The notes: a model not told the origin generated them from the letters alone. Positions 36,573-61,169 are shown, numbered from the stretch's first letter. The stretch is DNA of 64,000 nucleotides from Minisyncoccota bacterium (GCA_017991375.1 JAGOQP010000004.1:6499-70498); one strand, 5' to 3'. Made by a program: numbers and translations.

Positions 36573-37895
36573 TCACTCCGTTTCTGTTAGCTCCTTTTTG
36601 GGAATTAGTTGTGGATCCGTGGGGAGCGTTAAGTAGAAAACCGATCCTCTGTTTATTTCCGATTCCGCCCATATACGTCCTCCATGTCGTTCAATAATGT
36701 TTTTGGTAATATATAATCCCAATCCAGATCCATCTGACATCGTTTTTACCGCATTCTCGGCGCGGAAAAATTTGGTAAATAACTTTTCTAACTCTTCCTT
36801 CGATACGCCTATCCCCGTATCTTTGATGCTTATTCTTATAAATGATTTGTCTTCTTTTTCAATAGACACGGTCACCGTTCCATTTTCAACATTGTATTTA
36901 ATCGCGTTGTCTAACAGGTTGAAAAATGCCATGCTCAATTTTTGTGGGTCAATGTATACACGCGGCAACGCTTCTTGTGGTCGGTTGAAATATAATTTTA
37001 TTCCGTATTGCTTTGCCGTGTCGTTTATCTGAACAAGAACTTCTTCTACAAACGAGATGATGTCTTTTTCCTCGAATTGATAGCCAAATTTTCCCTCTTC
37101 TATTTTCGATATATCAAGCAGATCGTTTACTGTCTTGAGCATTTTTTTGGCAGCTAAAAATCCCGTGTTTACTAACTCTTTTTGTTGAGGCGCGAGCGAT
37201 TCTTCTCTTTCCAATGCTTCGAATGTCCAGTTAACCGCGGTGAGCGGCGTACGAAGTTGATGCGCCGCAACAGTGATAAAATCGGTTTTTGATTTTAGTA
37301 GTTGGGCCTCACGCGTTTTGTCGGTTATAATTTTTACAAATCCACCTGGTGACTCATCGCTCTCGATGACACGATCTGTTATTACTCGAAGTTCCAATTT
37401 GGGATTATCAAACGATATATCAACTACTTGTGGATACATACCAGGATCTGAGTGTTTTACCACCACTGGAGCGAGTGACGAAAATATTACCTGCGCGAGC
37501 GTTCGCAATGCCGGATCGGATGCCATTGCCGCCGTGATAACCTTTCCTATAACCTGATTTTCTTGTAGTCTAAATATTTCTTGCGCCGCTTTGTTGAATA
37601 TCAATATCTTAAATGACTGGTCATACGCAATAACCCCATTGGCAAGATTAGTAAACACACTCTCTACCTGCTGTGTTTTTGTTCTGAGTTCAACGCTCGC
37701 GCGTGTTAGCTTTAAACTAAGTCCCAGGAGAATGGAAATGATAACAACTATAATGGCTGGCGCCACTACTCTGAGTATTCCTTGGCCATATATCCCATCA
37801 AGAATTGCAACCACCACCGCTAGGGGCGTTAAATAAAGAGCTGGCCTAAATTCGGGCTGGTTTAGATATTTTATTTTTGTTGTTTGAGATACCAT
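36573..37895 (-). CDS. sensor histidine kinase (two TM, PAS-like, HisKA, HATPase_c)
   Basis: AAHQLRTPLTAVNW is the H-box. N, G1 and G2 boxes are present (LLDNAIKYN, DTGIGV, GSGLGL). No response regulator is nearby. Confidence 0.8.
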   Translation of the reverse strand: MVSQTTKIKYLNQPEFRPALYLTPLAVVVAILDGIYGQGILRVVAPAIIVVIISILLGLSLKLTRASVELRTKTQQVESVFTNLANGVIAYDQSFKILIFNKAAQEIFRLQENQVIGKVITAAMASDPALRTLAQVIFSSLAPVVVKHSDPGMYPQVVDISFDNPKLELRVITDRVIESDESPGGFVKIITDKTREAQLLKSKTDFITVAAHQLRTPLTAVNWTFEALEREESLAPQQKELVNTGFLAAKKMLKTVNDLLDISKIEEGKFGYQFEEKDIISFVEEVLVQINDTAKQYGIKLYFNRPQEALPRVYIDPQKLSMAFFNLLDNAIKYNVENGTVTVSIEKEDKSFIRISIKDTGIGVSKEELEKLFTKFFRAENAVKTMSDGSGLGLYITKNIIERHGGRIWAESEINRGSVFYLTLPTDPQLIPKKELTETE

Positions 37896-39092
37896 TTATT
37901 CCAGTGAATACTGATATAGCCGATCGTCGTATCGATTGATAAAGTAGAGATTATTTCCAACGTGCTGAATGGCATAAACATCGAGCATTGTTTCTCCAGA
38001 GTCCAGTATGGTATCAACAGATTTTTTTTCTACATCAAGACGCACCACAGTATCTTTGGTATATGTTGCTCTTTTGTTTATGTCGTCTGGCCACATAACC
38101 GTTCCCTCTTTTGAAGCCGCGTATGGAATCGCACACCATACCAATGCGTTTTCCCCAAACGCACACTTCTCTTTTATAGTCGAAAATGCCGCGTCAACAA
38201 TTGACGTTCCAATTGTGTCTATGATTCGCACCTGCATCGATCGTCCGTTATTACTCTTAAAAAGCATTGCCCGCGTTCCATTGGTATCCCATATAACTTG
38301 AATCCCATTGCCGCTATCTAAAACCGACGCTGTTTTATTTTTTATATTAAACTGGACTATTGACGCTTCGGTTTTATAGGAGGACCGTGGTGCTAGCGTT
38401 ATTACGTCTTTTGCCCCCCATATTATGTTCACATCTTGAATCGCCAGCGTTGTTATTGGTGTTGGTTTTTTACTTCCCGCTGGACTCTGACGAATATATA
38501 TCGTTTTTTCTGAAGCGCTCGTTTTGCTTAATAGAGCAATCTGAGTACCATCTGGAGAGAATGCAACTGATATCACATCAGGGCTGAGCCATTCCCATGT
38601 TTTTTTAACTCCATCAAAAAGGACCTTTTGTCCATTTTCTAATGTTATGACCGCGTATGGTTTCCCTAAAGCTCCTATAACCGATTGTGCCGTTTGATTT
38701 GCGAGAGAGAGTACTACCTGATGGGTACTCGTACCCGTGCCAGAGAAAATATCAACATTTTTTGTCGCATACCAAAGGATAGGCGTGCTCGTCGGAGATT
38801 GTTTTGAAAACCAATATCCGACAATGTTTTTATCTGAAACAATACTTAGACGCTTTTTTTGATTCTCATAGAATTCCAAAAGGTCTTTTTCTGTTATGTC
38901 GTTCTCCTGCGTTGCCCCTCCTCCGCCTTGATATCCAGAAGATGTAATAGGAAGCACGCTGTTGTTTTTTTGCCCACCCTCCGAAATGGTAAGAGTTGCT
39001 CTTTGTAGCCCAACATATACACCAACACCAATTGCTCCTATAATAGCAACAACTATCACGCTTATAATTATTCTTTTTCCTTTTTGATTCAT
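37896..39092 (-). CDS. membrane-anchored beta-propeller protein (PD40/TolB-like repeats)
   Basis: One N-terminal TM, then beta-rich repeats including FSPDGTQIA (PD40 signature). It is the last gene of the T4SS-like operon. Confidence 0.5.
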   Translation of the reverse strand: MNQKGKRIIISVIVVAIIGAIGVGVYVGLQRATLTISEGGQKNNSVLPITSSGYQGGGGATQENDITEKDLLEFYENQKKRLSIVSDKNIVGYWFSKQSPTSTPILWYATKNVDIFSGTGTSTHQVVLSLANQTAQSVIGALGKPYAVITLENGQKVLFDGVKKTWEWLSPDVISVAFSPDGTQIALLSKTSASEKTIYIRQSPAGSKKPTPITTLAIQDVNIIWGAKDVITLAPRSSYKTEASIVQFNIKNKTASVLDSGNGIQVIWDTNGTRAMLFKSNNGRSMQVRIIDTIGTSIVDAAFSTIKEKCAFGENALVWCAIPYAASKEGTVMWPDDINKRATYTKDTVVRLDVEKKSVDTILDSGETMLDVYAIQHVGNNLYFINRYDDRLYQYSLE

Positions 39093-39098
39093 ATAGTA

Positions 39099-39929
39099 TT
39101 ACAAACATCCCCCAGAGAGCACATCCCAATGATCTCCCTCGAGCGCGTAGATGGCACCTGTTGATGGGTTTTTATATTTCTTCGCCCCATCACTTGGACG
39201 AATCCCGACGTATGTAAAGTTTCCTTCTATGTACTGCTTTAGTGACTCATTGAGCCGCAGATCAACCTTCCACCCATTTTGATGCGAGCACACCCCTATC
39301 GAGTGATTACCTTCTGTCCCTGATGTTATAAATACTTCACACCCTGATCCTTGGCAATTTTGTTTAAGATTTATTATTTCGTTGATAATCGACTGCTTTA
39401 GGCCTCCCAACAACGTGCATCCTGTTGTTTGTCCTTCTTGGCATTGTGGTTTTGCTTCAACGCCACCAGCTTGGAGTCTCTGACGTACCGCGGCATCATC
39501 GCCCCCTGTTGCCGGTGTTTGATTGACTCCCGTTGAAAGATCTCCTGGTTTCACTTTTAGCTGTGTGAGGCCTGGATTTATTGTATTAAGAATAAGATAT
39601 GCCCCAAATAAAAGAAGTATGCCTATTATCGCTTCTTCAATTATTTTTCTCGCGTCGGCCAGTTTAGCGGGCGCCCCTTGGTTAAACACAACCATCAGTC
39701 CTCCATATACAATACGAATGATCGCAAGCGCCCCTGCTACTCCCAACGCGTATATATATATTTTATTCACAAAATCCGCTGGGTTTGTCGCACTAGCAAA
39801 ACTAGGGAATCCAAACTCAACATAGGTTGTTGATGCTGTGACCGATGAAGCGGCCTGGGCAGATGTCGCTGCTAACATAGCCCATACTACTACAATCATT
39901 CTTATTATGTCCGCTTTTGTTTTCATCAT
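39099..39929 (-). CDS. VirB2/TrbC-like pilin with Cys-rich C-terminal extension
   Basis: A long signal peptide is followed by two hydrophobic helices (IYIYALGVAGALAIIRIVYGGLMVVF / AIIGILLLFGAYLILNTI) separated by a short charged loop, as in conjugative pilins. An ~120-aa C-terminal domain with 8 Cys follows. Confidence 0.45.
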   Translation of the reverse strand: MMKTKADIIRMIVVVWAMLAATSAQAASSVTASTTYVEFGFPSFASATNPADFVNKIYIYALGVAGALAIIRIVYGGLMVVFNQGAPAKLADARKIIEEAIIGILLLFGAYLILNTINPGLTQLKVKPGDLSTGVNQTPATGGDDAAVRQRLQAGGVEAKPQCQEGQTTGCTLLGGLKQSIINEIINLKQNCQGSGCEVFITSGTEGNHSIGVCSHQNGWKVDLRLNESLKQYIEGNFTYVGIRPSDGAKKYKNPSTGAIYALEGDHWDVLSGGCL

Positions 39930-40633
39930 TGCTCTATTCTAAAATTAACGGCACGAGATGCTTGTTCTAGCTCGTCGGTTCTGCTTTGCGCGTTTGCGGT
40001 TACTTTTATGCCCTGTCCTATAATCGGTTCTTTTATCCCGACCTCCAATGCAAAGGGAGCGTTTTCGTTTGTTGTCACTTTCGTACTATTGATCGCCCAC
40101 CTCATGGCTAGATCTGCATTCTTCGTGTTGAAGAAGAATGGGAATGCGTTAACCCGTATCGCTACCGGCGATGTATTTTTTATTATTCTTGTTTTTGTCT
40201 CCAATACCAACTCGGGTTCACCTAGTGGAATTTTAAAAAACGTTCTTACAAATGATGCGTTTTGTGTTTGTGCGTCTTGGTAGTTAAACTCAACCTGTAC
40301 TTCAAGATCTAGCCCTCTAAATAGCGTTCCGGGAATTTCTATTGATTTTTTACCCACGCCTTTTTCAAGGAGCGAGTCATTTACATACCAACGTACCTCA
40401 CTTTTTTTAAGATCGATAAACTTTCCCTTATCTTGTGGATTTTGGCTGATTGCTTCGATAGAGGCCGTGACCGTTGCTTGATCGCTTGGGATATGTTTTC
40501 CTTCAAACCATAGCGGCGCGTTGTTGTTCGCGTGCCATGTCACTATGAAATGCGGCTGAGCGGCGTATGTATGCGTCGTAACCACTAACAACCACATCGC
40601 CCCTAATATTACTACAGCATTAGACCATTTCAT
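39926..40633 (-). CDS. secreted hypothetical protein (T4SS-associated)
   Basis: 235 aa with a signal peptide (MKWSNAVVILGAMWLLVVTTHTYAA). Its stop overlaps the next start by 4 bp within the operon. Confidence 0.4.
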   Translation of the reverse strand: MKWSNAVVILGAMWLLVVTTHTYAAQPHFIVTWHANNNAPLWFEGKHIPSDQATVTASIEAISQNPQDKGKFIDLKKSEVRWYVNDSLLEKGVGKKSIEIPGTLFRGLDLEVQVEFNYQDAQTQNASFVRTFFKIPLGEPELVLETKTRIIKNTSPVAIRVNAFPFFFNTKNADLAMRWAINSTKVTTNENAPFALEVGIKEPIIGQGIKVTANAQSRTDELEQASRAVNFRIEQ

Positions 40634-40666
40634 GTGGTTTAGTATAACACATTTTTATAGTTTGTG

Positions 40667-41206
40667 TTATTTTTTTAGTATTTTCCCCTTAATTTTCATT
40701 ACGTCGGCTGCGTGACCGAATGTCTTTTTAAACGATTCGGGGTTGTTCGTCTGCCATATAGTGAGCACTGCCGCTACCGTGCTGATCGGAAGCCATCCAA
40801 CAAATGGAACCATTTCCGTTAATTGAGCAACGATGTTCTTCCCAATCGCGGCGTCAACTCCTTTTAGGTATAACCACGCGACCGTCGCGGGCCCAAACAC
40901 TACCCGCGTTACCCAAATGGAGTCCCCCAAATCTCCAATAACAGCCATAGACACGTACAAAAAAATATCGACACCATCAAAACGGGCACTATTTTGTCTT
41001 GGTTTATCGCTGTCTAAAGAGTTTTCTTCTTCCTCGTCTGTATCTTTTCCCTCGTTATCTTCTTCGTCCTCCTCGTCATTATCGTATTCCTCTAATTCGC
41101 TCTCGTCGTTTATTTTCGTATTTTTTTCTCCTTCATCCACGCTCGCATCCCCTTTTTTCAAAAGGGTTTTATTTTCTTCTTTCTCCATCTTTTCCGATTG
41201 AACCAT
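40667..41206 (-). CDS. hypothetical protein with acidic N-terminus and C-terminal hydrophobic helices (T4SS-associated)
   Basis: The N-terminal ~70 aa are D/E-rich (EEYDNDEEDEEDNEGKDTDEEEE). The C-terminal half has 2-3 hydrophobic segments. Confidence 0.4.
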   Translation of the reverse strand: MVQSEKMEKEENKTLLKKGDASVDEGEKNTKINDESELEEYDNDEEDEEDNEGKDTDEEEENSLDSDKPRQNSARFDGVDIFLYVSMAVIGDLGDSIWVTRVVFGPATVAWLYLKGVDAAIGKNIVAQLTEMVPFVGWLPISTVAAVLTIWQTNNPESFKKTFGHAADVMKIKGKILKK

Positions 41207-41208
41207 AA

Positions 41209-42963
41209 CTAAACCAGTTGCGCTTCTTCTCCGAGAAGTTGTTGCGGTTTTGTGGTTACCACCTTGTCTTCAAAGAATGACGCGACTACTTGCATCGCCA
41301 CATGCTTGAGGCCCGCAAAAAAGAGTCCCTGCCCCACTCCGGCTTCTAGCAATAGATTCTTTTCCGCTTCGGTGAGATTGAATGTTTTTGCGACTACATC
41401 AACACTCGCTGGAGCTTGTTTAAGCAGTAATTGCAGTGATGAGTTTGTGATAATTGGCTTTCCGTACGGAGAACTAAGAAAATCTTCAACCTCTTGCGTG
41501 ATTGTTGTGAGTCCTAGGTAGTATTTGCGACCCCTTTTTGCCAAACTGAATAAAAACGCGGCTCCCTCGGGATATTTCATCATAACCCACGCTTCATCGA
41601 TAACCAGAATACGACGCTTCAACTGAGAACGTACTAGATTCCAGATGAAATTCAAAATGACGTACATTGCAATAGGACGAAGCTCTTCATCTAGATCGCG
41701 AATCGAAAACACCACTAGACGGTTGTTGATGTCTATGTTTGTTTTTTGGTTGATAAAGCCCGAATAGGTCCCCTGCGTGAATCGGTAGAGTTTTTCCGCC
41801 ATTATTCGCCCGCCTTCCATGTTGCGCAACACTGTTTCAAAGTCAGAAAGACGCGGGGGTTCCATGTTCAAGAAATTCGGATTTTCAGGAGTGATGTCAA
41901 ATGACGCATATGTCTCCGTTAGTGCTCTGTCTAAAATGGCTTCTTCTTCAACGGAAATGTCGCCAAGCATAATTTTCATCAAACCCGTCAGCGTGAGAAT
42001 GTTTGACTTAAACACGTCTGCCGGGTCTTCCCCAGGGGGAACTTTTGGAATATCAAAAGGGTTTATATGCTGATCGGAGGTGAGGGATACTTTAAAGTAC
42101 GTTCCTCCTACGGTGTCACATAAATTTTTGTACTCATCTTCCGGATCAATAACCAACACCTCGGTCCCCACCATAAGAGATCGCAGTATTTCCAATTTAG
42201 TCGCGTATGATTTTCCAGATCCGGATTTCGCAAATACAACCTGGTTTCCATTTTCGAGAGAAAAGCGATCAAAAATAACTAGTGTGTTATTGTGTTGATT
42301 TATACCGTACAGTATTCCCGTTTCCGACGTGAGATCCATAGACACAAATGGAAAAAATGACGACGCTGGGCCAGAGTTGAGAGGCGTTTTGATTTGAAGT
42401 TTATCATTCCCCAGCGGAATGGTTGAGATAAACCCTTCTACTTGTTGGAATATTGCTGGTTTTATGTAGATGAGTTTACTTTCGAAGATGTTATTGATAA
42501 TTTCTTCAAGTTCGTTGAGTTTCTCTATGGTGTCGGCATAGATGGTTACATACACTGCCGTTTCAAAGAGCCGTTCGCGCGCTTGTTGCAAGTTGTCTCG
42601 AAGCGCTTCCACATCGGAAAAAGCCGTCTCCAACATAGGGTCGCGTACGAATCCCTTTTCTTCTCTATCGGAAAGCTCTGCTTCTATTTGAGCGGCTTTT
42701 TTCCTCAGGTTTTTCATTGCTAGAGCTGTATCAACCGGATGCACGAAAATAGAGACATCAAAGAGCTTTGCCATATTCACGATTGGAGAAAACCACCCAC
42801 TGGATAGAAAGCGGGGATATGAGAACACAAACATCGTTTTGGCAAGTTTATTTCCTATTTTGATGTGATCGTGCTCAACCTCAACCGCCGCAGGAGCGAG
42901 GAGATTTTGCGTCTCTTGTTTATCTTGGTTGTTATATGGCTTTTGAAGACGGATGTCGTCCAT
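41209..42963 (-). CDS. virB4: VirB4-family type IV secretion ATPase (C-terminal ATPase portion)
   Basis: The Walker A is FAKSGSGKSY and the Walker B is LVIDEAW. Arg-finger regions and the TrbE/CagE-like C-terminus are present. It lacks the ~200-aa VirB4 N-domain. Confidence 0.8.
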   Translation of the reverse strand: MDDIRLQKPYNNQDKQETQNLLAPAAVEVEHDHIKIGNKLAKTMFVFSYPRFLSSGWFSPIVNMAKLFDVSIFVHPVDTALAMKNLRKKAAQIEAELSDREEKGFVRDPMLETAFSDVEALRDNLQQARERLFETAVYVTIYADTIEKLNELEEIINNIFESKLIYIKPAIFQQVEGFISTIPLGNDKLQIKTPLNSGPASSFFPFVSMDLTSETGILYGINQHNNTLVIFDRFSLENGNQVVFAKSGSGKSYATKLEILRSLMVGTEVLVIDPEDEYKNLCDTVGGTYFKVSLTSDQHINPFDIPKVPPGEDPADVFKSNILTLTGLMKIMLGDISVEEEAILDRALTETYASFDITPENPNFLNMEPPRLSDFETVLRNMEGGRIMAEKLYRFTQGTYSGFINQKTNIDINNRLVVFSIRDLDEELRPIAMYVILNFIWNLVRSQLKRRILVIDEAWVMMKYPEGAAFLFSLAKRGRKYYLGLTTITQEVEDFLSSPYGKPIITNSSLQLLLKQAPASVDVVAKTFNLTEAEKNLLLEAGVGQGLFFAGLKHVAMQVVASFFEDKVVTTKPQQLLGEEAQLV

Positions 42964-42965
42964 AT

Positions 42966-43628
42966 TTATTGTTGTTTTGTTGGTTCTTTTTCTTTGATCA
43001 ATTCTTTTTCTACCGCCTCCGGATTGTATAGATTGTAGTACAATTCTTTGAGTTCATCGTCATTGAGCGTCACCGCTCGTAATTCTATCCGCTCAAGTCC
43101 TCCAATTACTTGATCTATGCGCTGGCGTAGTTGAAACATTTTTTGGTCCATTGTTTCTTCTTTTTCTTTCGCACTCTGTTTTTTGCCAAACGGCAAGAAT
43201 CCAAGCAGACCCTTTTTCACCTCTCCTAGTCCAACTCCATCATAAGGAACTACGACAAAAAAGTTTTTTGTCATAATTTCATTCTGCTTTACAAAGTCCC
43301 GTATAAACGTAATGTGTTCACTTATCTGGTTGCGTAACAGTTCGTTTGTCTCCTTTGTTTTGAGCTGCTCCATGTACGTGAGATAGTTTTCTATATTGAG
43401 CTTCCTGGAGTGAATTACTATTTGCACTGAAAAATCGAGCGAGTTAAGAAAATCTTGATACGATCCGATAACCATTTCCTGTTCTTCTTCCGACTTAAGG
43501 TCAAAATTCATTCCCGTTACCATCAATACCGCTCGCATCGCGCCGTTTTTGAGAGTAACTACTCCATCTTTTATTTGTTCAACTTCAACGAATTGTTGCG
43601 TTGAGTTTGTTGATGATTGATTTGCCAT
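42966..43628 (-). CDS. VirB4 N-terminal domain, encoded as a separate ORF
   Basis: KDGVVTLKNGAMRAVLMVTGMNFDLKSEEEQEMVIGSYQDFLNSLDFSVQIVIHSRK...NFFVVVPYD parallels the VirB4 N-terminus of Agrobacterium (EDGSIMSIARIDGVAFELEEIE...FNTLLRNIADDHVSIYAHLVRH...FLTLVVSP). It ends 2 nt before the ATPase ORF, in a different frame. Confidence 0.6.
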   Translation of the reverse strand: MANQSSTNSTQQFVEVEQIKDGVVTLKNGAMRAVLMVTGMNFDLKSEEEQEMVIGSYQDFLNSLDFSVQIVIHSRKLNIENYLTYMEQLKTKETNELLRNQISEHITFIRDFVKQNEIMTKNFFVVVPYDGVGLGEVKKGLLGFLPFGKKQSAKEKEETMDQKMFQLRQRIDQVIGGLERIELRAVTLNDDELKELYYNLYNPEAVEKELIKEKEPTKQQ

Positions 43629-43737
43629 TTAATAGTGCTTTTCCGCTTCTGGCGGAAAAAGCGATTAGTGAATAGTGAAAAGTGGGGGAGCGTATGTCGT
43701 ATTTAGTATAGCGTATTTAAGAGATAAGCGCTATTTA

Positions 43738-44277
43738 CTATCTAAAATCAACCCGTTTCGCGACCTCGCGAGCGCCGCTCACCTTTCTGAAAACCATAAA
43801 CTGCTCTTTGATATCTCCGATTGATTTCTTTGCCACTGATTTTTCACGTTGAGGGATCGGATTTTTCGATGTGGTAATGTCTTGCCACAGTTTTCCTATG
43901 TTAGAAAGTCCTTTAAGCGCATTTCTAAGCGCATTTCGGCGTGCTTCTATATTTGTGGAACGAGTCAATGATGGGATTGTTATAACCTCTTCGGCCGCCG
44001 GCCGTTTCCATAAAAACATTTTTGGTTTCCATATAAACTTAAGCGCGAGTAGCCCAACCGCATATAGTGGTCTTCCATTTATTTTAATAAACGCGCTCAG
44101 AACTCCCCCACCAACCAAGACCACCGCGATAGGAATCCAGAATCCCAGGCGAAGAACGAAAAACAGAAAAAAAGCTACTAATGAAGGCGCCGCAATAAGT
44201 CCAAACTGCTTTAGAGTCAGTGGCCCTACGATTTTACTTTCTAAATCTATAAATTGTGGGACTTCGAATTGGGACAT
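43738..44277 (-). CDS. PrgI/VirB3-like small membrane protein
   Basis: 179 aa. Two adjacent TM helices near the N-terminus (LIAAPSLVAFFLFFVL / WIPIAVVLVGGGVLSAFI) are followed by a basic C-terminal tail. It sits immediately upstream of virB4, as in PrgI-PrgJ. Confidence 0.5.
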   Translation of the reverse strand: MSQFEVPQFIDLESKIVGPLTLKQFGLIAAPSLVAFFLFFVLRLGFWIPIAVVLVGGGVLSAFIKINGRPLYAVGLLALKFIWKPKMFLWKRPAAEEVITIPSLTRSTNIEARRNALRNALKGLSNIGKLWQDITTSKNPIPQREKSVAKKSIGDIKEQFMVFRKVSGAREVAKRVDFR

Positions 44278-44339
44278 GAAAAGAAACTAACAACTCACAA
44301 CCGACAACTAACAACGGATGTGATGTAAATAGAATTATT

Positions 44340-45227
44340 TTATTTTTTGAGAGTTAAGTCGTCCAGATTAACCGTGCCTTGCGGCTCACTTGGTTTTGGA
44401 ATCTCTGGGCTTTTGGGAGTGGTATAGTTGACCATTTTTATCTTTTCTTCTTTTTTCGGCTGAACTCCAAATTCTTTTACCGTCAGGGGAATTTTTTTCT
44501 CTTCTTGCGTCTGAGTGGCTTCATCTCCTGCTACTTGGATTTGCGCTTTTGAAATTGACGCTGTGGTTGATCGTGGAGTAAATGAAGTGTTAAATGATCC
44601 TTTATATCCTCCGTATGATATTTGTTTATACTCCTCCTGTGGGCGTGTTTGCGTGGCAGATGGAATTTCGTCTTTCTTATGGATAATAAATGGTCCGTCG
44701 GGCATAATCATTGTTCCCATTTTCTTCTCGGTGGGTCCTTGATTTTGCATGGGGACGCTTTTTAACTTATCAAACATCGCCGAACCGTCTATGCGTTCGA
44801 ACATGTCTTCTTTTTTGAGATTCACCGTTCCCGTGCCTTTGAGGTTTACTTCTTTGTCTATGCGTGGTTTTTGGATATCTTGTGATTGGACTGCTCCTAA
44901 TTTAAACGCCACGAAATTTTTTTCTATATCTTGCTTCCACGGCGCGAACACTTTTTCATCAACTGTTTGATATATCTGCAACGTTATATTATTCTCTGTT
45001 TTTATCACTTCTTTAAGCTCGTCAAATAGTTGCTGAGGCGCCAAAAATCCGTATATCACCAGATCACACGCATGGATAAGATTATTGATCTGCCAATCAT
45101 CCAGTTGGAATCTTTCACCGATTTCATATAACGCATCGTCTTTGTTTGGATCCTGCAATAATTCGCGCAAAATTATGGGAAGATTATCCCATCGTTCAAG
45201 TTGTTGTTGTGGTGTAACACTAACCAT
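44340..45227 (-). CDS. hypothetical protein (T4SS operon)
   Basis: 295 aa and hydrophilic, with no TM. It lies in the operon between the VirB6-like and VirB3-like genes. Confidence 0.4.
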   Translation of the reverse strand: MVSVTPQQQLERWDNLPIILRELLQDPNKDDALYEIGERFQLDDWQINNLIHACDLVIYGFLAPQQLFDELKEVIKTENNITLQIYQTVDEKVFAPWKQDIEKNFVAFKLGAVQSQDIQKPRIDKEVNLKGTGTVNLKKEDMFERIDGSAMFDKLKSVPMQNQGPTEKKMGTMIMPDGPFIIHKKDEIPSATQTRPQEEYKQISYGGYKGSFNTSFTPRSTTASISKAQIQVAGDEATQTQEEKKIPLTVKEFGVQPKKEEKIKMVNYTTPKSPEIPKPSEPQGTVNLDDLTLKK

Positions 45228-45233
45228 ATATTA

Positions 45234-47594
45234 TTACTTTCCTTTTTCACCACCCGAAGGCGGCGTTTGAGGAGTTGATGTTGTTTCTTGCTGAGGAGTG
45301 GCCCCTGATGTATACCCACCCATAATACTAGCCCTACTTGAAGCCAGTTTTTGCCCCAGCTCACTTAATTCTTGATCAATCACTTGTTCGCTGGATGTTA
45401 CGGCCTTCTTCTTTCCTTCCTTGCCTTTCTTGCTCCTCGTGACCCCTTGTTGCATTATTTCTAATTTTTTTTGTATTTCTGCTGGGTCTAGTATCTTTTT
45501 TGGATCTACTGATCCTATTTTGTCGGCGAGCTCTTTTAGTTTCTTTTTTCTTTCTTCTAATATTGCGACTTCTTTTTCTTTACCACCTTCCTCTCTCTTT
45601 TGCGCAATAGCAGTATCAACATCGCTTATTCTTTTTCTAAGACCTCTTATGCCTTCTGCTATTGTTTGCGTGTAGAAAATATCAAGATTTTTTCCTTCCA
45701 ATCTTGGCGCGGTTGAGTGGACTGCTCGCCCTCGACTGCTTACTATAGCGCTCGCATACGCTTGTCTAAATGTTGTCGCTTGATCCTCGCCACCCAGCCC
45801 TTCTATTTGTGGGTCGCTAGAAAATGCTGCCGATCCTACCGTCTCTGCCATTTGGCTCCAATCGCTTGGACTGAATTTCCCATAGAACGCTCCCGCAAGA
45901 TCTTGGTATTTTTTTCTTTTAATCTCTTTGATCTCTTCATGGGTAACCGGATCGCGTTTCGGAAGACCTGTTTCTGGGTCCTTTACTGTCTCCTCAACCT
46001 CAATTTCTCCCGTGGGCGCTTGCAATGCGCGCATCATGTCGTATGTCATGCCAAACTTCTTTTCCATATCGGCCGCATCTTGAGCACGACCAACTTTTCT
46101 CATTGTTTCTATCGCGGCGATGCGATCACTTAAAGACGTTAGCGCCACGACTTCTTTTACCTTCTTTTTCTTAGTGAGCCATGCTATGGTCGCGGCTCTT
46201 CTTTCTCCCGTCATGGTTGAAATAAGCTTCATTACCTGTTCGGGCTTCATGGTATCGAGCTCCTTTTCAAACTCGCGCGAGTATTCGCTTGAGACTTTTT
46301 CTGCCTCAAGTTCCTTTTCTTCTATCTTTCTTGCCGCCACCCCAAGTCCAAACATTCTTCCAAACCGGTTGGACCCCGCCGCAATAACTTTTTTTCTCCC
46401 CCATTTTCCCGGTTTGCTCTCTAAAGTTGCCCGACCCATGCGACCACCAGCTCGACGTAGTTTTGTTTTACTCCACGCGGTTGTTTTTTGGGTTGCTTTG
46501 TTTGCTAACCCCAGAGCCATTTGTGCTCCGCCACCTGCAAAACTAAGAGCAAATTTCATTCCAAATATCATCATTGCTAACACTATAATTGGTAGCATAA
46601 TGTCTCTAAACCGAGCGTTCCCTAAATTTGCCCCCACATCTTCAGTCTGAGCGGAAGGATTACTCGATGATCCAATATTCGAAAGTCGTGATGTGAATAC
46701 GTCTTGGCTCATGCTCGAAAATGATATAACGAGCCACATAAAAAGAAGAACAATCGGAACGTAAAAAACCCATTTATTGAAAACTCCCCACCATTTGCCC
46801 CAGTACGCTTTTCCAAAAGGTATTACCCTCAACAGCCATACCATAGGAGATATTATGAGCAGCATAGCGAGATAAAAATATCTCACAAAGAGAGATGCCC
46901 CTAACCCCAAAAAGACCAAGAAAATGACGAGTCCTACTACAACAGACACAAAGAGACTTATAGTATCTTGAAGTTGGATCGAGACGAAGTCGGTTATTTT
47001 TTGGAAAATACTTTTATCATCAGATACAATTAAGTTTTTATAATTTCCCACCTCTCCCATCAGTGAATTACCTAATTCATAGAACTGTTCAGTTCCTTTT
47101 CCTCCTATTTGTTCTATAAGGAAGTTAGAAAACACGTCGGATACCCGTATGATGGTCCCCGCAATAACTAAACTAAAATTCACTAAAAGAGCGCTTACGA
47201 TCAAACCAAAAAGCATTTTATTCCATACATATTCTTTATATCTAAGGATGGTCCCGATGGCCATCGCGATTATTGCAAGAACGAAACCCAAATTCGCAAT
47301 ATCTCTAAAAACTGTCCACCCTATATATATAAAACTCTCTTTTCGTGTTATGTCCTCTGCTAACAATTGGTTAAATTGAACCCCTACGTTTATTAACATT
47401 GCTCCAAATTTAACCAGAGCACCCGCTATACTATTAATAGTGAGTAAGATTGTATTGATTATTGGCAATGCTGGTATTGCCCCTATAAGGGCCGAGGCGT
47501 GAGCGGACAACGGAGCCACGATTAACACCACGATTATCGCTGTTATTATTCCTATGTTCTTTTTGTACCCCAACCACTTCATATTATTGAACAC
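45234..47594 (-). CDS. VirB6/TrbL-like polytopic membrane protein with long charged C-terminal tail
   Basis: The N-terminal ~400 aa have about 8 TM helices plus a large loop. The C-terminal ~380 aa are hydrophilic, Lys/Glu-rich and probably disordered, ending in a Thr/Pro/Gln-rich tail. The architecture matches the TrbL/VirB6/PrgH class. Confidence 0.65.
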   Translation of the reverse strand: MFNNMKWLGYKKNIGIITAIIVVLIVAPLSAHASALIGAIPALPIINTILLTINSIAGALVKFGAMLINVGVQFNQLLAEDITRKESFIYIGWTVFRDIANLGFVLAIIAMAIGTILRYKEYVWNKMLFGLIVSALLVNFSLVIAGTIIRVSDVFSNFLIEQIGGKGTEQFYELGNSLMGEVGNYKNLIVSDDKSIFQKITDFVSIQLQDTISLFVSVVVGLVIFLVFLGLGASLFVRYFYLAMLLIISPMVWLLRVIPFGKAYWGKWWGVFNKWVFYVPIVLLFMWLVISFSSMSQDVFTSRLSNIGSSSNPSAQTEDVGANLGNARFRDIMLPIIVLAMMIFGMKFALSFAGGGAQMALGLANKATQKTTAWSKTKLRRAGGRMGRATLESKPGKWGRKKVIAAGSNRFGRMFGLGVAARKIEEKELEAEKVSSEYSREFEKELDTMKPEQVMKLISTMTGERRAATIAWLTKKKKVKEVVALTSLSDRIAAIETMRKVGRAQDAADMEKKFGMTYDMMRALQAPTGEIEVEETVKDPETGLPKRDPVTHEEIKEIKRKKYQDLAGAFYGKFSPSDWSQMAETVGSAAFSSDPQIEGLGGEDQATTFRQAYASAIVSSRGRAVHSTAPRLEGKNLDIFYTQTIAEGIRGLRKRISDVDTAIAQKREEGGKEKEVAILEERKKKLKELADKIGSVDPKKILDPAEIQKKLEIMQQGVTRSKKGKEGKKKAVTSSEQVIDQELSELGQKLASSRASIMGGYTSGATPQQETTSTPQTPPSGGEKGK

Positions 47595-48933
47595 ATTCTG
47601 GATGCTCTGATTTTATTGTTAATAACTCATCAAGCTTTGCCTGCGCTTCTTGTAGCGCCGTATTATTTCCCATCTCTGCGTTATCGGATTCCATTAATTG
47701 GATAAGGCCAGCGTACATAGATCTAAATGTATCCATCAGTTGTTGTAGTCCAATGAGTTGCTCTGAAAAATCAGACGACCTTACATCGACTCCTTGTAGC
47801 CCCTGCAGATTTTCCATCGCTTTGGTTAACGCCGTTTGTATGCCGTCGATAACTGCTTGTATTTCTGTCACTGTCGCCTCGCCAACACCCGAGGTCGCGC
47901 ACTGTGCAAGCGATTGAGCGAGGGTGAGCGCTTCGTTATATTTTTGGGCAACGGGATCGAAATAATCAATAAACTGCTGGTACTCTGCTATCATATTGTC
48001 TACTTGCTCCTGATTATACTGAGCGATAATTTCATCACCGTCCCCCGAATCACCGCTTCCTGTTGAAGAAAAACCATCTTGGAAGTACGATACTAACCTA
48101 TCTATAAGCGCGTTTATTACTGCCGCGTAAATGCTTTGAATGTTACTTGTAAAATCAAACTTACCGTCAACAATTTTGTTTGCCGCGTTCGCCACAACTG
48201 ATGCTGGAGCCATAATATTCCACTTTTCGCACTCCTTGCTCTGATCGTCGTTTGTGTACTTGAGACATTTTTTAGGAGCAAGGAATCCTCCCGCTGACGT
48301 CGATTCGTTTTGTCGCGCCTCTTTTTCCGCAGACGCTTTTGTCAGGAATTGACCCTCGAGCCGCAAGCTGATCCAATAAGGATTTACTTCTGGTGAAAAC
48401 ATCGCGTCGTATGTCAGCCAATCGCCCCTTCTTAGAAAATCTTTGGTGTTTTCCAGGTTTTGTCTAAAATCCTCAAAACGACAAGTTACCGGCATATTAT
48501 TTCCCCTTACATTGTAGTACTTATACATCGCAATCAATCTGACGCGCAGTTGTTGCGAAAATGGAGCACAAAGATTGAGGCCTTCTGTTTTTAGGTATTC
48601 ATTGAGCGAATCAAACGCGATGTTCCCCGCATCATTTAGAAATGCCTTCCAATCGCCGACAAATTTAGGCTTTCCGCCTCCGTTGATCCAATTGATAATT
48701 TCCTCGGTCATCAAGTCGACGATACGACGCACCATTAAGTCCCTGACCATTTTCCACTTATCATTCTTTCTATCTATTACCTGATCTTGTACTGTTTGTT
48801 TTGTCGTCACCATCTGATGTTCAAAATCGTTGACTGGAACACCTGTGCCAACCGCTTTTACATCAGTTATACCAAAAACTAGCGCGCTTAACACACACAA
48901 CAGAAAAAGTGCCCCTATTACTTTAACTTTCAT
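47584..48933 (-). CDS. secreted hypothetical protein (T4SS operon)
   Basis: 449 aa with a signal peptide (MKVKVIGALFLLCVLSALVFGITDVKA). The C-terminal half is helical and coiled-coil-like. No recognisable family. Confidence 0.45.
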   Translation of the reverse strand: MKVKVIGALFLLCVLSALVFGITDVKAVGTGVPVNDFEHQMVTTKQTVQDQVIDRKNDKWKMVRDLMVRRIVDLMTEEIINWINGGGKPKFVGDWKAFLNDAGNIAFDSLNEYLKTEGLNLCAPFSQQLRVRLIAMYKYYNVRGNNMPVTCRFEDFRQNLENTKDFLRRGDWLTYDAMFSPEVNPYWISLRLEGQFLTKASAEKEARQNESTSAGGFLAPKKCLKYTNDDQSKECEKWNIMAPASVVANAANKIVDGKFDFTSNIQSIYAAVINALIDRLVSYFQDGFSSTGSGDSGDGDEIIAQYNQEQVDNMIAEYQQFIDYFDPVAQKYNEALTLAQSLAQCATSGVGEATVTEIQAVIDGIQTALTKAMENLQGLQGVDVRSSDFSEQLIGLQQLMDTFRSMYAGLIQLMESDNAEMGNNTALQEAQAKLDELLTIKSEHPECVQ

Positions 48934-48984
48934 AACGGGATTACACTTTTAGTATACCACATCGATGATTTTACTGCTTGTGTA

Positions 48985-50154
48985 TTACTGCAGTCCTGTA
49001 CCAAAATAGGAGATCATTCCTTGCCCCCACGAATAATAATCGTATAAGGAGTGCGTGCAGATGCCCGGACCACCAATCGCTTCTCCCAAAATCCAGTTTC
49101 CTGTTATTACCATTTTGTACAGAAATGGATTGTAGAGATACACGACCCAATACAAGAAGAACGCTCCACCGGTTGGAGGTGATATGGTAAGGGCCAATCC
49201 CGTTAAACAGGTATCCGTTATGGTGATAATCCCCCCAAATGGAATAAGTCCTGGTGTCGCGTAGGTGGGGGTCGCCATGCCTATTAATGTTGCCACCGCG
49301 CGCCAAAAACCGCTTGGTTTTTGGGCGGTTAGTTTTAGGGCTTTTTTTATAACATCCGACTGAGCCGCGTATGTGTTTTTGTATTCATTTGATTTTTGCT
49401 CAAGCGTCGCCGGCGTGCCGTCTCCGCTCAATACCGCGTCCACAAATGATACGTTGTACTGGGCCCAGTTTATAAGGTCTTTTTTTTGACTATGTGTTAT
49501 TGATGCCGCACCTAACTGTGCTTGAGCTTGAATACCAATCTTTTTCCACACACTCAATGTTTTTTTGGTCTGATCAGTAAGACCATTTTTGAGCGCATCC
49601 TCTAGGGCCGCAGGGATTGTTGCTGGAATTCCATTTACAGTAAGCATGCCAGCTATATCGTCCTTACTTACCATAACGTTTTTCGCTATGGCTGTTATCT
49701 CTTGAGCGAGTGTCTGCGTTGGATTATTTATTGACACACTTGGTGAGGATGAAACAGTTAACGCTGTTTTTGGCGTTTGGACTACTACCGGTGTTACACT
49801 CGGTGATCGTGATACGGCAACGTTTTTTTCTAGTATTTTATTTTTAATCGCTAATTTCGTTTTGATGCCTACGTATCCATATGCGGGCGTTATTCCCTGC
49901 TCTTTTTGAAATCGGATTACTGCTTTTTTGGTAAGTTGTCCAAAGTATCCGGTTACGAGTCGCTCGGGATATGTAGTTTTGTTGTTATATTTTTCGTCAG
50001 ACAAAAATGTTTGTAATGTTGCCACCGCGTCCCCTCGTGAGCCACTATATATGTCTTGAGACGAGGCTGTTAACTCATCATATGATAAGATCTGCGCTTG
50101 TGCGACGCCACACCACAGAGACACAAGAAAAACAAAAATTATTATCCTTTTCAT
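48985..50154 (-). CDS. secreted peptidoglycan-binding domain protein with hydrophobic Gly-rich C-terminal domain (T4SS operon)
   Basis: A signal peptide is followed by a PG_binding_1-like unit (GSRGDAVATLQTFL...GYFGQLTKKAVIRFQKEQGI). The C-terminal ~110 aa are hydrophobic and G/P-rich (GLIPFGGIITITD..GGAFFLYWVVYLYNPF). Confidence 0.5.
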   Translation of the reverse strand: MKRIIIFVFLVSLWCGVAQAQILSYDELTASSQDIYSGSRGDAVATLQTFLSDEKYNNKTTYPERLVTGYFGQLTKKAVIRFQKEQGITPAYGYVGIKTKLAIKNKILEKNVAVSRSPSVTPVVVQTPKTALTVSSSPSVSINNPTQTLAQEITAIAKNVMVSKDDIAGMLTVNGIPATIPAALEDALKNGLTDQTKKTLSVWKKIGIQAQAQLGAASITHSQKKDLINWAQYNVSFVDAVLSGDGTPATLEQKSNEYKNTYAAQSDVIKKALKLTAQKPSGFWRAVATLIGMATPTYATPGLIPFGGIITITDTCLTGLALTISPPTGGAFFLYWVVYLYNPFLYKMVITGNWILGEAIGGPGICTHSLYDYYSWGQGMISYFGTGLQ

Positions 50155-50158
50155 ATTT

Positions 50159-50935
50159 TTAATACGCTGTTATTTGTGACTGTATTTTGACCCAATCCTT
50201 GAGAACGTCTGGGAGCGCATCAAGACCGAGCGACGCCTTGAGTGGATCTTTATCAAACACTATAAAGGAGTCGAATATTTTTTGGAGGTTTTCAAAAAAA
50301 ATAATGTTTTGTTTGTGAAATGTAGTAAATACTCGTGGCACGGGAAGTGTTTTTAAACTACTTACAATCTTTCTGTTCATATCACTTGCCTCCTTGGCGG
50401 GCGTTGTATTGTTTCTCAAAAAAACATCATCAACCATCGTGTCAATCCATGTTCCTTTTTTAATAAGCCCTATTTCTTTCTCAACTATTGTTGCGTATGC
50501 ATCTCCATACTCTTTCTTTCTCGCGTCTGATATGTCATCTACTATGCGGATGTCGCTATCTTTTACTGCTCGGTATAATTCTAAAATATTGGTACTCGTC
50601 GCTCCCAAATTTTTTATATTCACCGCCGCCAATGATTGACTCAGCGAAGAAATATCAGCACTCCCATCCCATGAACTTAGAAGTTGATCGGTAATATCTT
50701 GTGTGATGTTTCCCGTCACGTTGTTTGATGATTCACTCACGCTCTTTGGTGATGAGGTAGCACCTTCTTTAATGCTTATATTTTGCTTTATAATTCCCTC
50801 CTGCTGGATTGACTGAGACGTTCCTAATTGTGTTGATTTATCCTCTTTAACCCCGCCGACAAAAAAGAACCATCCCACAAGAAAGGCGGCGATGAGAACT
50901 GCAAATACTATACCGATTCGCTGCGATTGTTTCAT
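50159..50935 (-). CDS. membrane-anchored hypothetical protein (first gene of T4SS operon)
   Basis: 258 aa. One N-terminal TM (IGIVFAVLIAAFLVGWFFFVGG) is followed by a Ser-rich linker and a soluble domain. Confidence 0.4.
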   Translation of the reverse strand: MKQSQRIGIVFAVLIAAFLVGWFFFVGGVKEDKSTQLGTSQSIQQEGIIKQNISIKEGATSSPKSVSESSNNVTGNITQDITDQLLSSWDGSADISSLSQSLAAVNIKNLGATSTNILELYRAVKDSDIRIVDDISDARKKEYGDAYATIVEKEIGLIKKGTWIDTMVDDVFLRNNTTPAKEASDMNRKIVSSLKTLPVPRVFTTFHKQNIIFFENLQKIFDSFIVFDKDPLKASLGLDALPDVLKDWVKIQSQITAY

Positions 50936-50965: not shown

Positions 50966-51757
50966 TCACAATTGAGTTGCTATTTTTTCTATTAATTCAA
51001 CACTTAAATCTTGAGGGCGTGCTTGTTTTGATAGATCATACATCCTCAGAACATTTTCTATTTTTTCTCTTTCATATCCCCCTTGCGCCAGGTTTGAGAC
51101 AGCCATTTTTCTTGGCTGTTTGAATACCGCGCGCATACATTTATAAAACAGCTCTGGGGCGCACCGCGCTTTCTCGACGCGAGGAATAATCTCTATAACA
51201 GCCGAGCTCACTTTGGGAGGTGGATTAAAGTTTCCCGCAGCAACGATGAATTTTTTACGGGGAACTCCCCAATATTGAACCGATGCGGCGAGCATATTCA
51301 TTTTGGGCGGACGGACGGTGAGACGGCTAGCTACTTCTTCTTGGATAAGCGCGATTGTTTGAGTTGGTTTTACTTTCGCATCCCCTATAACACGCAATAA
51401 ACTTCCGGTTATGTAGTATGGGATGTTGCCAATAACTACATAAGACGCGTGACGGGCGCGTCGTGATGAGGCGATCAACGGAAAAACATCAAGAGCATCT
51501 TGATTGATTATTTTGACGTACTCTCCTTTTATATTTTCTTTTAACGCGGGGATAAGTGCTTTATCTTTTTCTATGCACACTAACTGCCATTTTTTTATGC
51601 GCGCGTTTTTAAAGCGTTCTATGATGTGCTTGGTCAACTGCCCCGTTCCCGAGCCAATTTCGATTACCACCATGTTCTCGCATGGCTCTATTATTCTGGC
51701 GATTTTTTCCAATATCGCTTCATTCTTAAGAAAATGTTGGCCTAGTCGTCTTCCCAT
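50966..51757 (-). CDS. rsmA: 16S rRNA (adenine1518/1519-N6)-dimethyltransferase RsmA/KsgA
   Basis: LGQHFL at the N-terminus, VVIEIGSGTGQLT (SAM motif I) and NIPYYIT are present. Confidence 0.85.
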   Translation of the reverse strand: MGRRLGQHFLKNEAILEKIARIIEPCENMVVIEIGSGTGQLTKHIIERFKNARIKKWQLVCIEKDKALIPALKENIKGEYVKIINQDALDVFPLIASSRRARHASYVVIGNIPYYITGSLLRVIGDAKVKPTQTIALIQEEVASRLTVRPPKMNMLAASVQYWGVPRKKFIVAAGNFNPPPKVSSAVIEIIPRVEKARCAPELFYKCMRAVFKQPRKMAVSNLAQGGYEREKIENVLRMYDLSKQARPQDLSVELIEKIATQL

Positions 51758-59465: not shown

Positions 59466-59897
59466 TTATATTATATGTTTGATAACTATTTTTCTCTCTT
59501 TTCCTATTCCTTCGCTTTCTGTTTTTAAATCTGGATTCATAGCGAGCTCCGTGTGCACAATTCTTCGCTCATACGCATTCATTGGTGGGAGTGTAATACT
59601 CTCTTTTGTAGCGAGCGCTTTGCGTGCCGCCGCTTTTGCTAGTTTTATAATCAATTCCTCTCGTTCTTTTCTATAATTGTTCACATCCACAAACACCAGC
59701 GCGTCATCATGTTTTTTTGAAATCATTTTTGCCACGAAATCAAGATCAGAAACAAATTGCGGTAATAGTTTTATTAAAAACGGAGCGTCGTTTATAAAAA
59801 TAGAAAAGCGCCTTGATTCGTCTGTATATGAGACGGACACATCGGAAAACCCCATGTGTTTTATTAAATTAGTTAGAATCTCCTGTGTTTTTTTCAT
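59466..59897 (-). CDS. Jag/KhpB-like RNA-binding protein (KH + R3H domains)
   Basis: The C-terminal YERRIVH is the R3H motif. It sits in the conserved position downstream of yidC. Confidence 0.7.
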   Translation of the reverse strand: MKKTQEILTNLIKHMGFSDVSVSYTDESRRFSIFINDAPFLIKLLPQFVSDLDFVAKMISKKHDDALVFVDVNNYRKEREELIIKLAKAAARKALATKESITLPPMNAYERRIVHTELAMNPDLKTESEGIGKERKIVIKHII

Positions 59898-60606
59898 TGT
59901 CTTTGTTTATCTTTCTGTTTATTACTATCTGTTGTATAACCGAAAAAACAGATGTCGTCAACCAGTATATCGCGATAGCCGAAGGGAGGTTGTACAAAAT
60001 AACAATAGTCAGTAGCGGCCCTACAACCATCATTTGTTTTGACACTCGTTCTGTTGTTGAGAGCTCTTTTTTGGGATCGCGATTTTTTTTAGCCACACCA
60101 AACAACAACGCCGACTGAATATACTGCGCCACCGCGGCCATTACCACCAACACCACGCTTTTTTTGCTTAAATCAAATACTCCTAGAAAAGAGTAGTTTA
60201 TTACTGTGGGGTGGGCTATAAAAGTATATAATTTATCTAAAACGTCCTGGGAAAAACCCTTAAAAAAAACTTGGTATAACCCGATGAGAATGGGTAGTTG
60301 GATAAACAACAAAAGAAAGCCGGCAAAGGGATTTACTTTGTGCTCTTTGTACACATTCATTATTTCTTGTACTTGCTTCTCTTTGTTTTCTTTGTGTTCT
60401 TGTTGTATTTCTCTAATACGCGGCGCGATTTTTTGCATAATTGTCTGATCCTTCGCGCTTTTGTAAAACAGTGGCAGTAAAATTGTTCTAATGATCACCG
60501 TCACAATCACAATCGCGATTCCCAAATCTGCCCACGTATTGTTGTACACCAAAAACAGCAGGTTAAGTAACGGTCTGTATATTATTTCATTAAACAAAGC
60601 GATCAT
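59869..60606 (-). CDS. yidC: membrane protein insertase YidC (short form)
   Basis: 245 aa with 5 TM helices. The conserved TM2/TM3 region NPFAGFLLLFIQLPILIGLYQVF is present. Synteny rnpA-yidC-jag holds. Confidence 0.8.
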   Translation of the reverse strand: MIALFNEIIYRPLLNLLFLVYNNTWADLGIAIVIVTVIIRTILLPLFYKSAKDQTIMQKIAPRIREIQQEHKENKEKQVQEIMNVYKEHKVNPFAGFLLLFIQLPILIGLYQVFFKGFSQDVLDKLYTFIAHPTVINYSFLGVFDLSKKSVVLVVMAAVAQYIQSALLFGVAKKNRDPKKELSTTERVSKQMMVVGPLLTIVILYNLPSAIAIYWLTTSVFSVIQQIVINRKINKDNEKNTGDSN

Positions 60607-60941: not shown

Positions 60942-60953
60942 TTATCGCTGTTC

Positions 60954-61100: not shown

Positions 61101-61169
61101 AGTTTTTTCATACTATCACCTTTTTTTCTGAATAACAACCTTTGGCGTGCTATTTGCGTCTCTCTTTAT

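Follow-up and report, generated by a model that had tools for sequence, protein, structure and literature searches.

Patescibacteria carry type IV secretion systems (T4SSs) that have been described in several recent papers, and few other machines have been shown to be indispensable to these ultra-small bacteria as epibionts. Quinonero-Coronel et al. (2025; PMC12102498) found that Patescibacteria VirB4 proteins form a monophyletic clade within MPF_FATA and that their most frequent neighbour is TrsD, with PrgI/VirB3, VirB6, and pilins resembling VirB2 also encoded close to virB4. In these systems VirB8 can hardly ever be detected, no relaxase occurs, the type IV coupling protein (T4CP) is usually encoded far away, and the Paceibacteria clusters are located near ksgA, rnpA, rpmH, dnaA, and dnaN. 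Wang et al. (2023; PMC10633639) showed that Southlakia cannot grow as an epibiont without its T4SS genes and pilin array; a 2025 FEMS review (PMC12857230) notes that this requirement does not depend on comEC and speculates that material from the host is taken up through a conduit formed by the T4SS and its pilus. For a cultivated parasite of the Microgenomatia, a 2026 preprint reports tubules, possibly T4SS structures, that extend to the host, together with uptake of host RNA. Here we describe a cluster of 12 genes on the minus strand of a 64,000-nucleotide stretch of DNA (the window) from Minisyncoccota bacterium (GCA_017991375.1, JAGOQP010000004.1:6499-70498). The cluster runs from position 50935 down to 37896, and we are highly confident that it is a Patescibacteria-clade T4SS in the Paceibacteria (Parcubacteria) arrangement. 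The system is already known and the window copy is a typical Paceibacteria representative, not a new kind of system; the one detail not found in the papers cited here is the fusion of the operon's only pilin to a putative LAS-type peptidase domain.

VirB4 and the translocon core

The genes are labelled g01 to g12 in transcription order. The clearest assignment is that of g08 (41209–42963), a VirB4 ATPase of the CD1110/MPF_FATA type that corresponds to the C-terminal two thirds of a canonical VirB4. It matches the NCBIfam model NF045971 (conju_CD1110) with an E-value of 1.9e-112 and 376.9 bits (cut-off 325) over model positions 182–732 of 752, and in Pfam it matches P-loop_TraG (1.8e-30) and also AAA_10. 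The 80 best of 180 VirB4 relatives from 185,579 species genomes were used for comparison; open reading frames (ORFs) were called in these 80 loci, iterated hidden Markov model searches were run from each window protein, and occupancy was counted in the 43 loci with full flanks. The 80 relatives have Patescibacteria-type record titles, with a few auto-labelled 'Bdellovibrionales', and their VirB4 proteins are 53–84% identical to g08, ranging from 75–84% for Wolfebacteria/Paceibacterota to 53–58% for Moran-, Yanofsky- and Portnoybacteria. The genome itself belongs to the Candidate Phyla Radiation, its nearest relatives being metagenome-assembled genomes of Wolfebacteria/Paceibacterota.

The preceding gene, g07 (42966–43628), encodes TrsD, the VirB4 N-terminal domain as a protein of its own. 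It matches the NCBIfam TrsD model (E-value 2.7e-12) and also aligns with the N-terminal parts of three VirB4 models, and supplies the part that is missing from g08. The two ORFs are separated by 2 nt in the window; TrsD is a separate ORF in 79 of the 80 loci and occurs in all three frames relative to virB4, from which we conclude that the split is ancient. A frameshift or pseudogene as the origin of the g07/g08 pair was considered and rejected on these same two observations. The lone fused case (L011:9224-11752) has TrsD and VirB4 in one 842-aa ORF, which could be either a re-fusion or the ancestral state.

Two further core components are less directly recognised. The small membrane protein g06 (43738–44277) is PrgI/VirB3-like; it matches Pfam PrgI at 24.8 bits (E-value 3.4e-5), just under the cut-off of 27, and its orthologues match PrgI in 45 of 45 cases (best 2.5e-12) and TcpE in 20. 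The polytopic membrane protein g04 (45234–47594) has approximately seven transmembrane (TM) segments in residues 1–355 followed by a large hydrophilic C-terminal half, as judged by hydropathy scan; NCBI places its start four codons downstream (782 aa). No direct Pfam or NCBIfam match was found for g04 itself. Weak TrbL matches are present in 8 of 43 members of its family, and one homologue (P0040, E-value 6e-63 to g04) scores 26.1 bits against Pfam TrbL (cut-off 25.9) over profile positions 2–208 of 215. Many g04 homologues also carry a precomputed match to PF19590, presumably a TrbL-like family. We accept g04 as a putative 'extended' VirB6/TrbL-like protein, by transitive homology only. Searches of PDB sequences with profiles of the g01, g03, g04, g05, and g10 families returned coiled-coil or repeat noise only.

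These results bear out the earlier note on this DNA, made from the sequence alone, which had named VirB4, its N-domain, PrgI/VirB3, VirB6/TrbL, a VirB2-like pilin, and a beta-propeller as parts of the apparatus: VirB4 lies above a curated cut-off and the others are recognised through family or homologue matches. The profile matches for VirB4, VirB6, and VirB3, on which that note had let its reading depend, hold, that for VirB6 through homologues of g04. Its description of a stripped-down, monoderm-type T4SS resembling those of the Candidate Phyla Radiation likewise agrees with what is found—VirB2, VirB3, a split VirB4, and VirB6—and with the systems in PMC12102498, PMC10633639, and PMC12857230.

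The g11 pilin and its C-terminal domain

The only pilin-domain ORF within the 64-kb window is g11 (39099–39929). Its product consists of a signal peptide, a two-helix VirB2-like pilin hairpin (residues ~27–122), a flexible linker modelled with low confidence, and a C-terminal domain of about 130 aa (residues ~145–272). It matches Pfam T4SS_pilin at 25.2 bits (E-value 1.7e-5; cut-off 26.6), as do 41 of 45 members of its family.

Within the C-terminal domain, residues H209, K221, D223, E264, H267, and W268 are invariant among 25 homologues and H216 is at least 90% conserved. The motifs H216-x6-D223 and E264-x-x-H267 fit the required H-x(3-6)-D and E-x-x-H (or H-x-H), which correspond to the zinc-binding and catalytic residues typical of VanX/VanY-type (LAS, M15) peptidases; the motif is present in 128 of 150 cluster representatives. 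An AlphaFold2 model of g11 has a mean predicted local distance difference test score of 84.6 overall and of ~85–98 in the C-terminal domain. A Foldseek search with this model returned no significant match, no Pfam or NCBIfam peptidase model matches the window protein, and a phmmer search of the C-terminal domain against PDB found no match. The fold evidence is rated as moderate because of the Foldseek result, and the motif evidence as stronger; taken together the domain is apparently a zinc peptidase of the LAS (VanX/VanY/Hedgehog) type with its signature intact.

The combination is common among the relatives. In Paceibacteria T4SS loci most pilin paralogues bear, at the corresponding position, a domain of either the LAS or the SLT (VirB1) type, and 48 of the 67 pilin-domain ORFs in the related loci carry an extension of at least 100 aa. 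Pfam SLT or SLT_3 is found in 11 of 45 pilin-family members, and by motif inspection roughly 29 extensions are LAS-type and 14 SLT/lysozyme-type, several of these being assigned by eye and not by scripted search. In the Wolfebacteria-like relatives (L001–L014) the lone operon pilin always has an extension. A library of 1.84 billion cluster representatives gave 1142 matches to the window-type domain at an E-value of 1e-3 or lower, and among the 126 top matches that are full-length, the pilin domain stands N-terminal of the LAS-type domain in 107. One member of this library, a giant protein of 2312 aa (P0165), has its LAS-type domain at residues 1791–1890, far from any pilin hairpin, indicating that the domain is also used in very large surface proteins.

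Other pairings are seen as well. Two loci (L061:2004-5615 and L067:1994-5209) have the window-type LAS domain inside a g03 orthologue, and in a third (L015:7141-8904) a pilin domain is fused to a TolB propeller like that of g12; domains are being shuffled among the envelope parts of these T4SSs.

The signal peptide, the two TM helices with a K/R-rich connecting loop, and the C-terminal cysteines predict that the hydrolase domain of g11 faces outward; all six cysteines of the protein lie in its C-terminal half, beyond the pilin hairpin. VirB2-type pilins can be C-terminally processed, as is TrbC of RP4, and the hydrolase may thus be released instead of displayed. Fusions of pilin and hydrolase are absent from PMC12102498 and none turned up in a literature search. 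According to the same paper, linkage between VirB1 homologues and virB4 is largely a Paceibacteria trait, a pattern that the pilin-hydrolase fusions may explain.

Gene content, gene order and chromosomal setting

Throughout the 80 Paceibacteria/Parcubacteria loci the gene order g01-g03-g04-g05-g06-g07-g08-[g09]-[g10]-g11(x1-3)-g12 is never permuted. A comparison of gene order in related genomes had been suggested in the earlier note, and the loci prove to be strictly collinear; the same order in 80 independent loci is not a chance pattern. Among the 43 complete loci, g06 and g07 are present in all, g04 in 42, g01 (in the same first position), g03, and g12 (always last) in 41 each, g11 in 38, and g05 (between VirB6 and VirB3) in 35, followed by g10 in 19, g09 (always directly after virB4) in 16, and g02 in 5. 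The secreted components that had been taken for novelties of this copy are therefore mostly class-wide: g01, g03, g05, and g12 occur in 35–41 of the 43 loci, g09 in 16, and g10 in 19, and g02 alone is sporadic. The locus is a clean Paceibacteria example with a conserved core of nine families: g01, g03, VirB6, g05, VirB3, TrsD, VirB4, the pilin, and the TolB-like propeller.

The cluster had been described as a 13-gene operon. The co-directional minus-strand arrangement is confirmed, and the number is not: the ORF listing gives 12, as does the list of products in the same description, and a thirteenth is obtained only by counting a histidine kinase gene (37895–36573) outside the range 50935–37896. 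The intergenic gaps from g01 to g12 are, in order, 4, 51, −11, 6, 62, 109, 2, 2, 33, −4, and 6 nt, so that the packing is indeed tight, but the range is −11 to 109 nt with two gaps above 60 nt, instead of 0–60 nt. The same-strand run extends upstream, where UvrD is followed after 8 nt by KsgA and after a further 30 nt by g01, and downstream into the histidine kinase gene. A promoter scan gave promoter-like counts at the background level, with one suggestive site (50971–50943) inside the 30-nt gap between KsgA and g01. Terminator-like sites number 39 against a shuffle mean of 18.8 (about twofold) and are mostly on the opposite strand, with none that marks an operon boundary.

The first gene, g01 (50159–50935), encodes a bitopic membrane protein with one TM segment by hydropathy scan (residues 3–31). 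Pfam and NCBIfam gave no match, and a PDB profile search gave nothing relevant to the window copy. Orthologues in the more distant loci (alignment A1; for example L070:3397-4458) have DxDxDG calcium-binding, thrombospondin-type-3-like repeats after the TM anchor, and these repeats match the biofilm surface protein 7c7r (E-value 8.4e-5); the window g01 has no such repeats. The product of g02 (48985–50154) is predicted to be secreted, with a PG_binding_1 domain (E-value 3.2e-9, 37.3 bits, cut-off 23) and a hydrophobic, Gly-rich C-terminus; it is a rare insertion and not a core part. Another ORF in the window (5733–7676, minus strand, 647 aa) also has PG_binding_1 and shares only that module with g02 (43% over 72 aa).

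The secreted protein g03 (47584–48933) has a conserved N-terminal region, a C-terminal helical bundle, and seven cysteines, six of them in invariant columns of alignment A10. Its gene lies directly upstream of the VirB6 gene, the virB5 position in classical operons, and this gene position alone is suggestive of a VirB5-like protein. There is no match to VirB5/TrbJ profiles, and the structure model is of low confidence, with TraC (1r8i) only at rank 42 among generic helical matches. The g05 protein (44340–45227) is soluble; its first ~90 aa are conserved and its C-terminus is of low complexity, and it has no TM segment and no match in Pfam, NCBIfam, or PDB. The small protein g09 (40667–41206) has a highly acidic N-terminal region of ~80 aa and a hydrophobic C-terminal region, a net charge of −17, and one segment above the hydropathy threshold (residues 132–151), with no Pfam or NCBIfam match. 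The g10 product (39926–40633) is beta-rich and secreted or anchored, having an N-terminal hydrophobic segment (residues 6–25) and no significant Pfam, NCBIfam, or PDB match. These topologies are as the earlier note had them: an N-terminal anchor in g01, signal-like N-termini in g02, g03, and g10, and an acidic N-terminus with a hydrophobic C-terminus in g09.

As for VirB8, the g01 and g10 profiles match no VirB8 structure among the PDB sequences. The nine family alignments were also compared by hhalign with single Prg proteins of pCF10; the positive control, the pair g06/PrgI, reached a probability of only 2.4%, and since this true pair failed, the negatives for PrgL, PrgD, and PrgF carry no weight.

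The last gene of the cluster, g12 (37896–39092), encodes a TolB-like (PD40) beta-propeller with an N-terminal membrane anchor (TM segment at residues 4–32). The family profile matches twelve TolB entries with E-values from 6.5e-10 to 1.5e-7, aligned to the propeller region; the TolB N-terminal domain is unmatched and the TM anchor stands in its place. The histidine kinase gene (36573–37895, minus strand) abuts g12 with a 0-nt gap and encodes PAS, HisKA (4.6e-15), and HATPase_c (6.1e-30) domains in Pfam. It follows g12 in only 10 of the 43 complete loci, which all belong to close relatives. Its neighbours do not include a response regulator, and the next ORFs have no family matches. The kinase gene may be co-transcribed with the cluster and lies outside the conserved core.

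The extracellular parts diverge fast: they are 22–35% identical among the closest loci, compared with about 80% for VirB4. Such divergence is expected of host-recognition surfaces and is one argument for regarding the apparatus as mainly an adhesion organelle, in which the pilin-hydrolase and the propeller would bind the host wall and the ATPase would assemble a fibre without any transport. Conjugative pili do chiefly mediate attachment, and peptidoglycan-binding or -cutting modules are present in g02 and g11. Patescibacteria, however, already attach by type IV pili and dedicated adhesins, the full translocon set of VirB3, VirB4, and VirB6 is kept under strong purifying selection, and the invariant LAS catalytic residues argue for cutting over mere binding; we regard a purely adhesive role as quite unlikely.

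The setting of the cluster is chromosomal. Window proteins are 100% identical to the 'hypothetical proteins' KBC26_01920, KBC26_01955, and KBC26_01960 of a public 'Candidatus Pacebacteria' metagenome-assembled genome, and the flanking housekeeping genes encode KsgA, UvrD, YifB/ComM, a DksA-like protein, PolA, YidC, RnpA, DnaA, DnaN, RuvA, MurE, MetRS, and FtsK. The rRNA dimethyltransferase gene ksgA/rsmA (50966–51757, minus strand; RrnaAD E-value 5.1e-35) forms the upstream flank and serves as a chromosomal marker; KsgA is upstream of the cluster in 51 of the 80 loci and UvrD in 21. In the window, a UvrD/PcrA helicase gene (51766–53559) and a YifB/ComM-type Mg-chelatase-like ATPase gene (53714–55252) lie upstream of ksgA, both on the minus strand in the T4SS orientation. 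The dnaA gene (61315–62688, plus strand) is ~10 kb from the cluster. Its neighbourhood (59869–63946) contains yidC (59869–60606) and rnpA (60603–60941) on the minus strand and dnaN (62828–63946) on the plus strand; the GC content drops to 0.34–0.38 at 60–64 kb, and the T4SS operon strand is co-directional with left-arm replication. Outside the window, genes for PBP1 and RuvC occur at one end and genes for polysaccharide synthesis at the other.

Scans with Pfam and NCBIfam found no relaxase, T4CP/VirD4, or integrase in the 64-kb window or in the DNA adjoining it (~10 kb on the left side, 3.5 kb on the right) and nothing resembling VirB7/9/10 in the cluster; no tRNA is present in the window, and the GC content is flat across the cluster. 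The earlier note had reported that VirD4, VirB11, a relaxase, and an outer-membrane core are lacking, and none was detected with the cluster; a relaxase or VirD4 just outside the window, which it had named as pointing to an ordinary integrated conjugative element, was not found in these flanks either. It was also right that the FtsK is the chromosomal one: this protein (21116–23311) has alpha and gamma domains and is the sole FtsK-like protein.

We examined how far the cluster could be an integrated conjugative element or the decayed remnant of one, with its relaxase and T4CP elsewhere or recently lost. Its VirB4 does belong to a family of monoderm conjugative elements (CD1110/MPF_FATA), and the prg operon of pCF10 has the same PrgH-PrgI-PrgJ core order. 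Against this, the DNA examined has no integrase, relaxase, T4CP, or tRNA and no island bounded by repeats, and the GC content is uniform; the cluster occupies a conserved setting among housekeeping genes, beside ksgA and in this window ~10 kb from dnaA, with class-wide gene order and 53–84% identity in VirB4; and the genes show no sign of decay, with intact ORFs and a TrsD split of ancient origin. With no coupling protein, relaxase, or integrase nearby, no tRNA, flat GC content, and class-wide synteny, the conjugative-element reading was rejected as very improbable. The cluster is chromosomal, non-conjugative, and vertically inherited.

Elsewhere in the window, an ORF at 10705–15363 (plus strand) encodes a 1552-aa protein that combines three Lamin-tail domains with one of the staphylococcal-nuclease type. 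This protein is probably a large nuclease, either secreted or at the cell surface, and bears on nucleic-acid scavenging.

Possible function and comparison with known systems

The explanation that we consider probable overall is a T4SS that acts as a conduit at the site of host contact, with a wall-cutting domain on the pilin and with import as the most likely direction. TrsD, VirB4, VirB3, and VirB6 would form a translocon in the cytoplasmic membrane, as in characterised T4SSs, and the VirB4 ATPase would drive the building of a pilus or channel out of pilin hairpins. The LAS domain of the pilin, predicted to face outward, would supply the missing VirB1-type cutting of peptidoglycan, either for passage through the cell's own wall or for attack on that of the host. 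Five further conserved envelope or soluble proteins accompany this core in fixed order, and the whole apparatus would pass macromolecules where the host cell is contacted.

A stronger form of this idea, in which the T4SS pilin is itself the wall-cutting enzyme and a hydrolase-studded pilus or channel drills through the host's or the cell's own wall, seems improbable to us; it supposes that the domain stays attached after assembly. If it were true, it would account for VirB1 being apparently missing and offer a physical path by which host cytoplasm could be taken up. The pilin-tethered hydrolase as such is the part worth following up: it could show how a T4SS with a pilus gets through a monoderm wall when no separate VirB1 is present, and how touching the host wall turns into access.

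For the direction of transport we tentatively prefer import of host material, either nucleic acids or cytoplasmic content. Uptake is favoured because a set of VirB2, VirB3, VirB4, and VirB6 only, without a T4CP, matches the import machines Ced and ComB, because these organisms are nucleotide auxotrophs, and because the 2026 preprint reports uptake of host RNA.

A serious rival, which we nonetheless rate as rather unlikely, is outward delivery of effector or toxin proteins that subdue the host, as in the bacteria-killing T4SS of Xanthomonas or the 89K system of Streptococcus suis. PMC10633639 proposes 'DNA or protein delivery' and suggests that the Southlakia T4SS 'may instead export proteins', some T4SSs without a T4CP export proteins (Bordetella Ptl and Brucella VirB), and the operon encodes the Sec-dependent secreted proteins g02, g03, and g10. 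But no coupling protein that could recruit cytoplasmic substrates is found near the cluster, no effector or toxin domain is recognisable in the operon, and its secreted proteins belong to conserved, structural-looking families in fixed order and not to variable cargo.

The same part list raises the prospect of a DNA-uptake machine for natural transformation, following the logic of Helicobacter ComB or archaeal Ced. Both of these systems, the latter consisting of CedA/A1/A2/B, have VirB2/3/4/6 without a T4CP, as does the window cluster. Ced is not orthologous, with g08 scoring 45 bits against the CedB model (cut-off 700), and ComB has an outer-membrane core (B7, B9, and B10), whereas none was detected in the window cluster. 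DNA uptake in Saccharibacteria runs instead through comEC and type IV pili (PMC12857230, PMC10633639), and we give a competence role a low probability.

Compared with the LAS/MEROPS M15 peptidases—VanX, VanY, MepA, the phage L-Ala-D-Glu endopeptidases, and the Hedgehog N-domain fold—the g11 domain differs in being fused to a T4SS pilin hairpin, an architecture for which no description was found in the literature.

The conjugation systems of MPF_FATA, represented by PrgH-PrgI-PrgJ-PrgK-PrgL of pCF10 and TrsC/TrsD/TrsE of pGO1, have in common with the window cluster the VirB6-VirB3-VirB4 core order, a VirB4 of the CD1110 family, and a membrane-anchored wall hydrolase encoded in the operon; in pGO1, TrsD is a separate protein, as it is here. 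The T4CP PcfC, the relaxase PcfG, the adhesin PrgB, and the VirB8-like PrgL/PrgD of pCF10 have no recognisable counterpart in the window cluster. Gram-positive MPF_FATA systems lack a VirB2-like pilin, whereas the window cluster has one, and the multi-domain hydrolase of the PrgK type in pCF10 contrasts with a hydrolase tethered to a pilin hairpin.

The closest relationship is with the Patescibacteria-clade T4SSs. In Southlakia epibionticum (SEML1_0006-0019) there is an array of six pilin genes, compared with the single pilin gene in the window, and the papers cited here leave the pilin-hydrolase fusion unmentioned and the families g01, g03, g05, and g12 uncharacterised. The shared features are a VirB4 of MPF_FATA ancestry with TrsD next to virB4, PrgI/VirB3, VirB6, and a VirB2-like pilin, in a chromosomal location near ksgA and dnaA with no relaxase and no nearby T4CP, and in nothing essential does the window copy differ from them.

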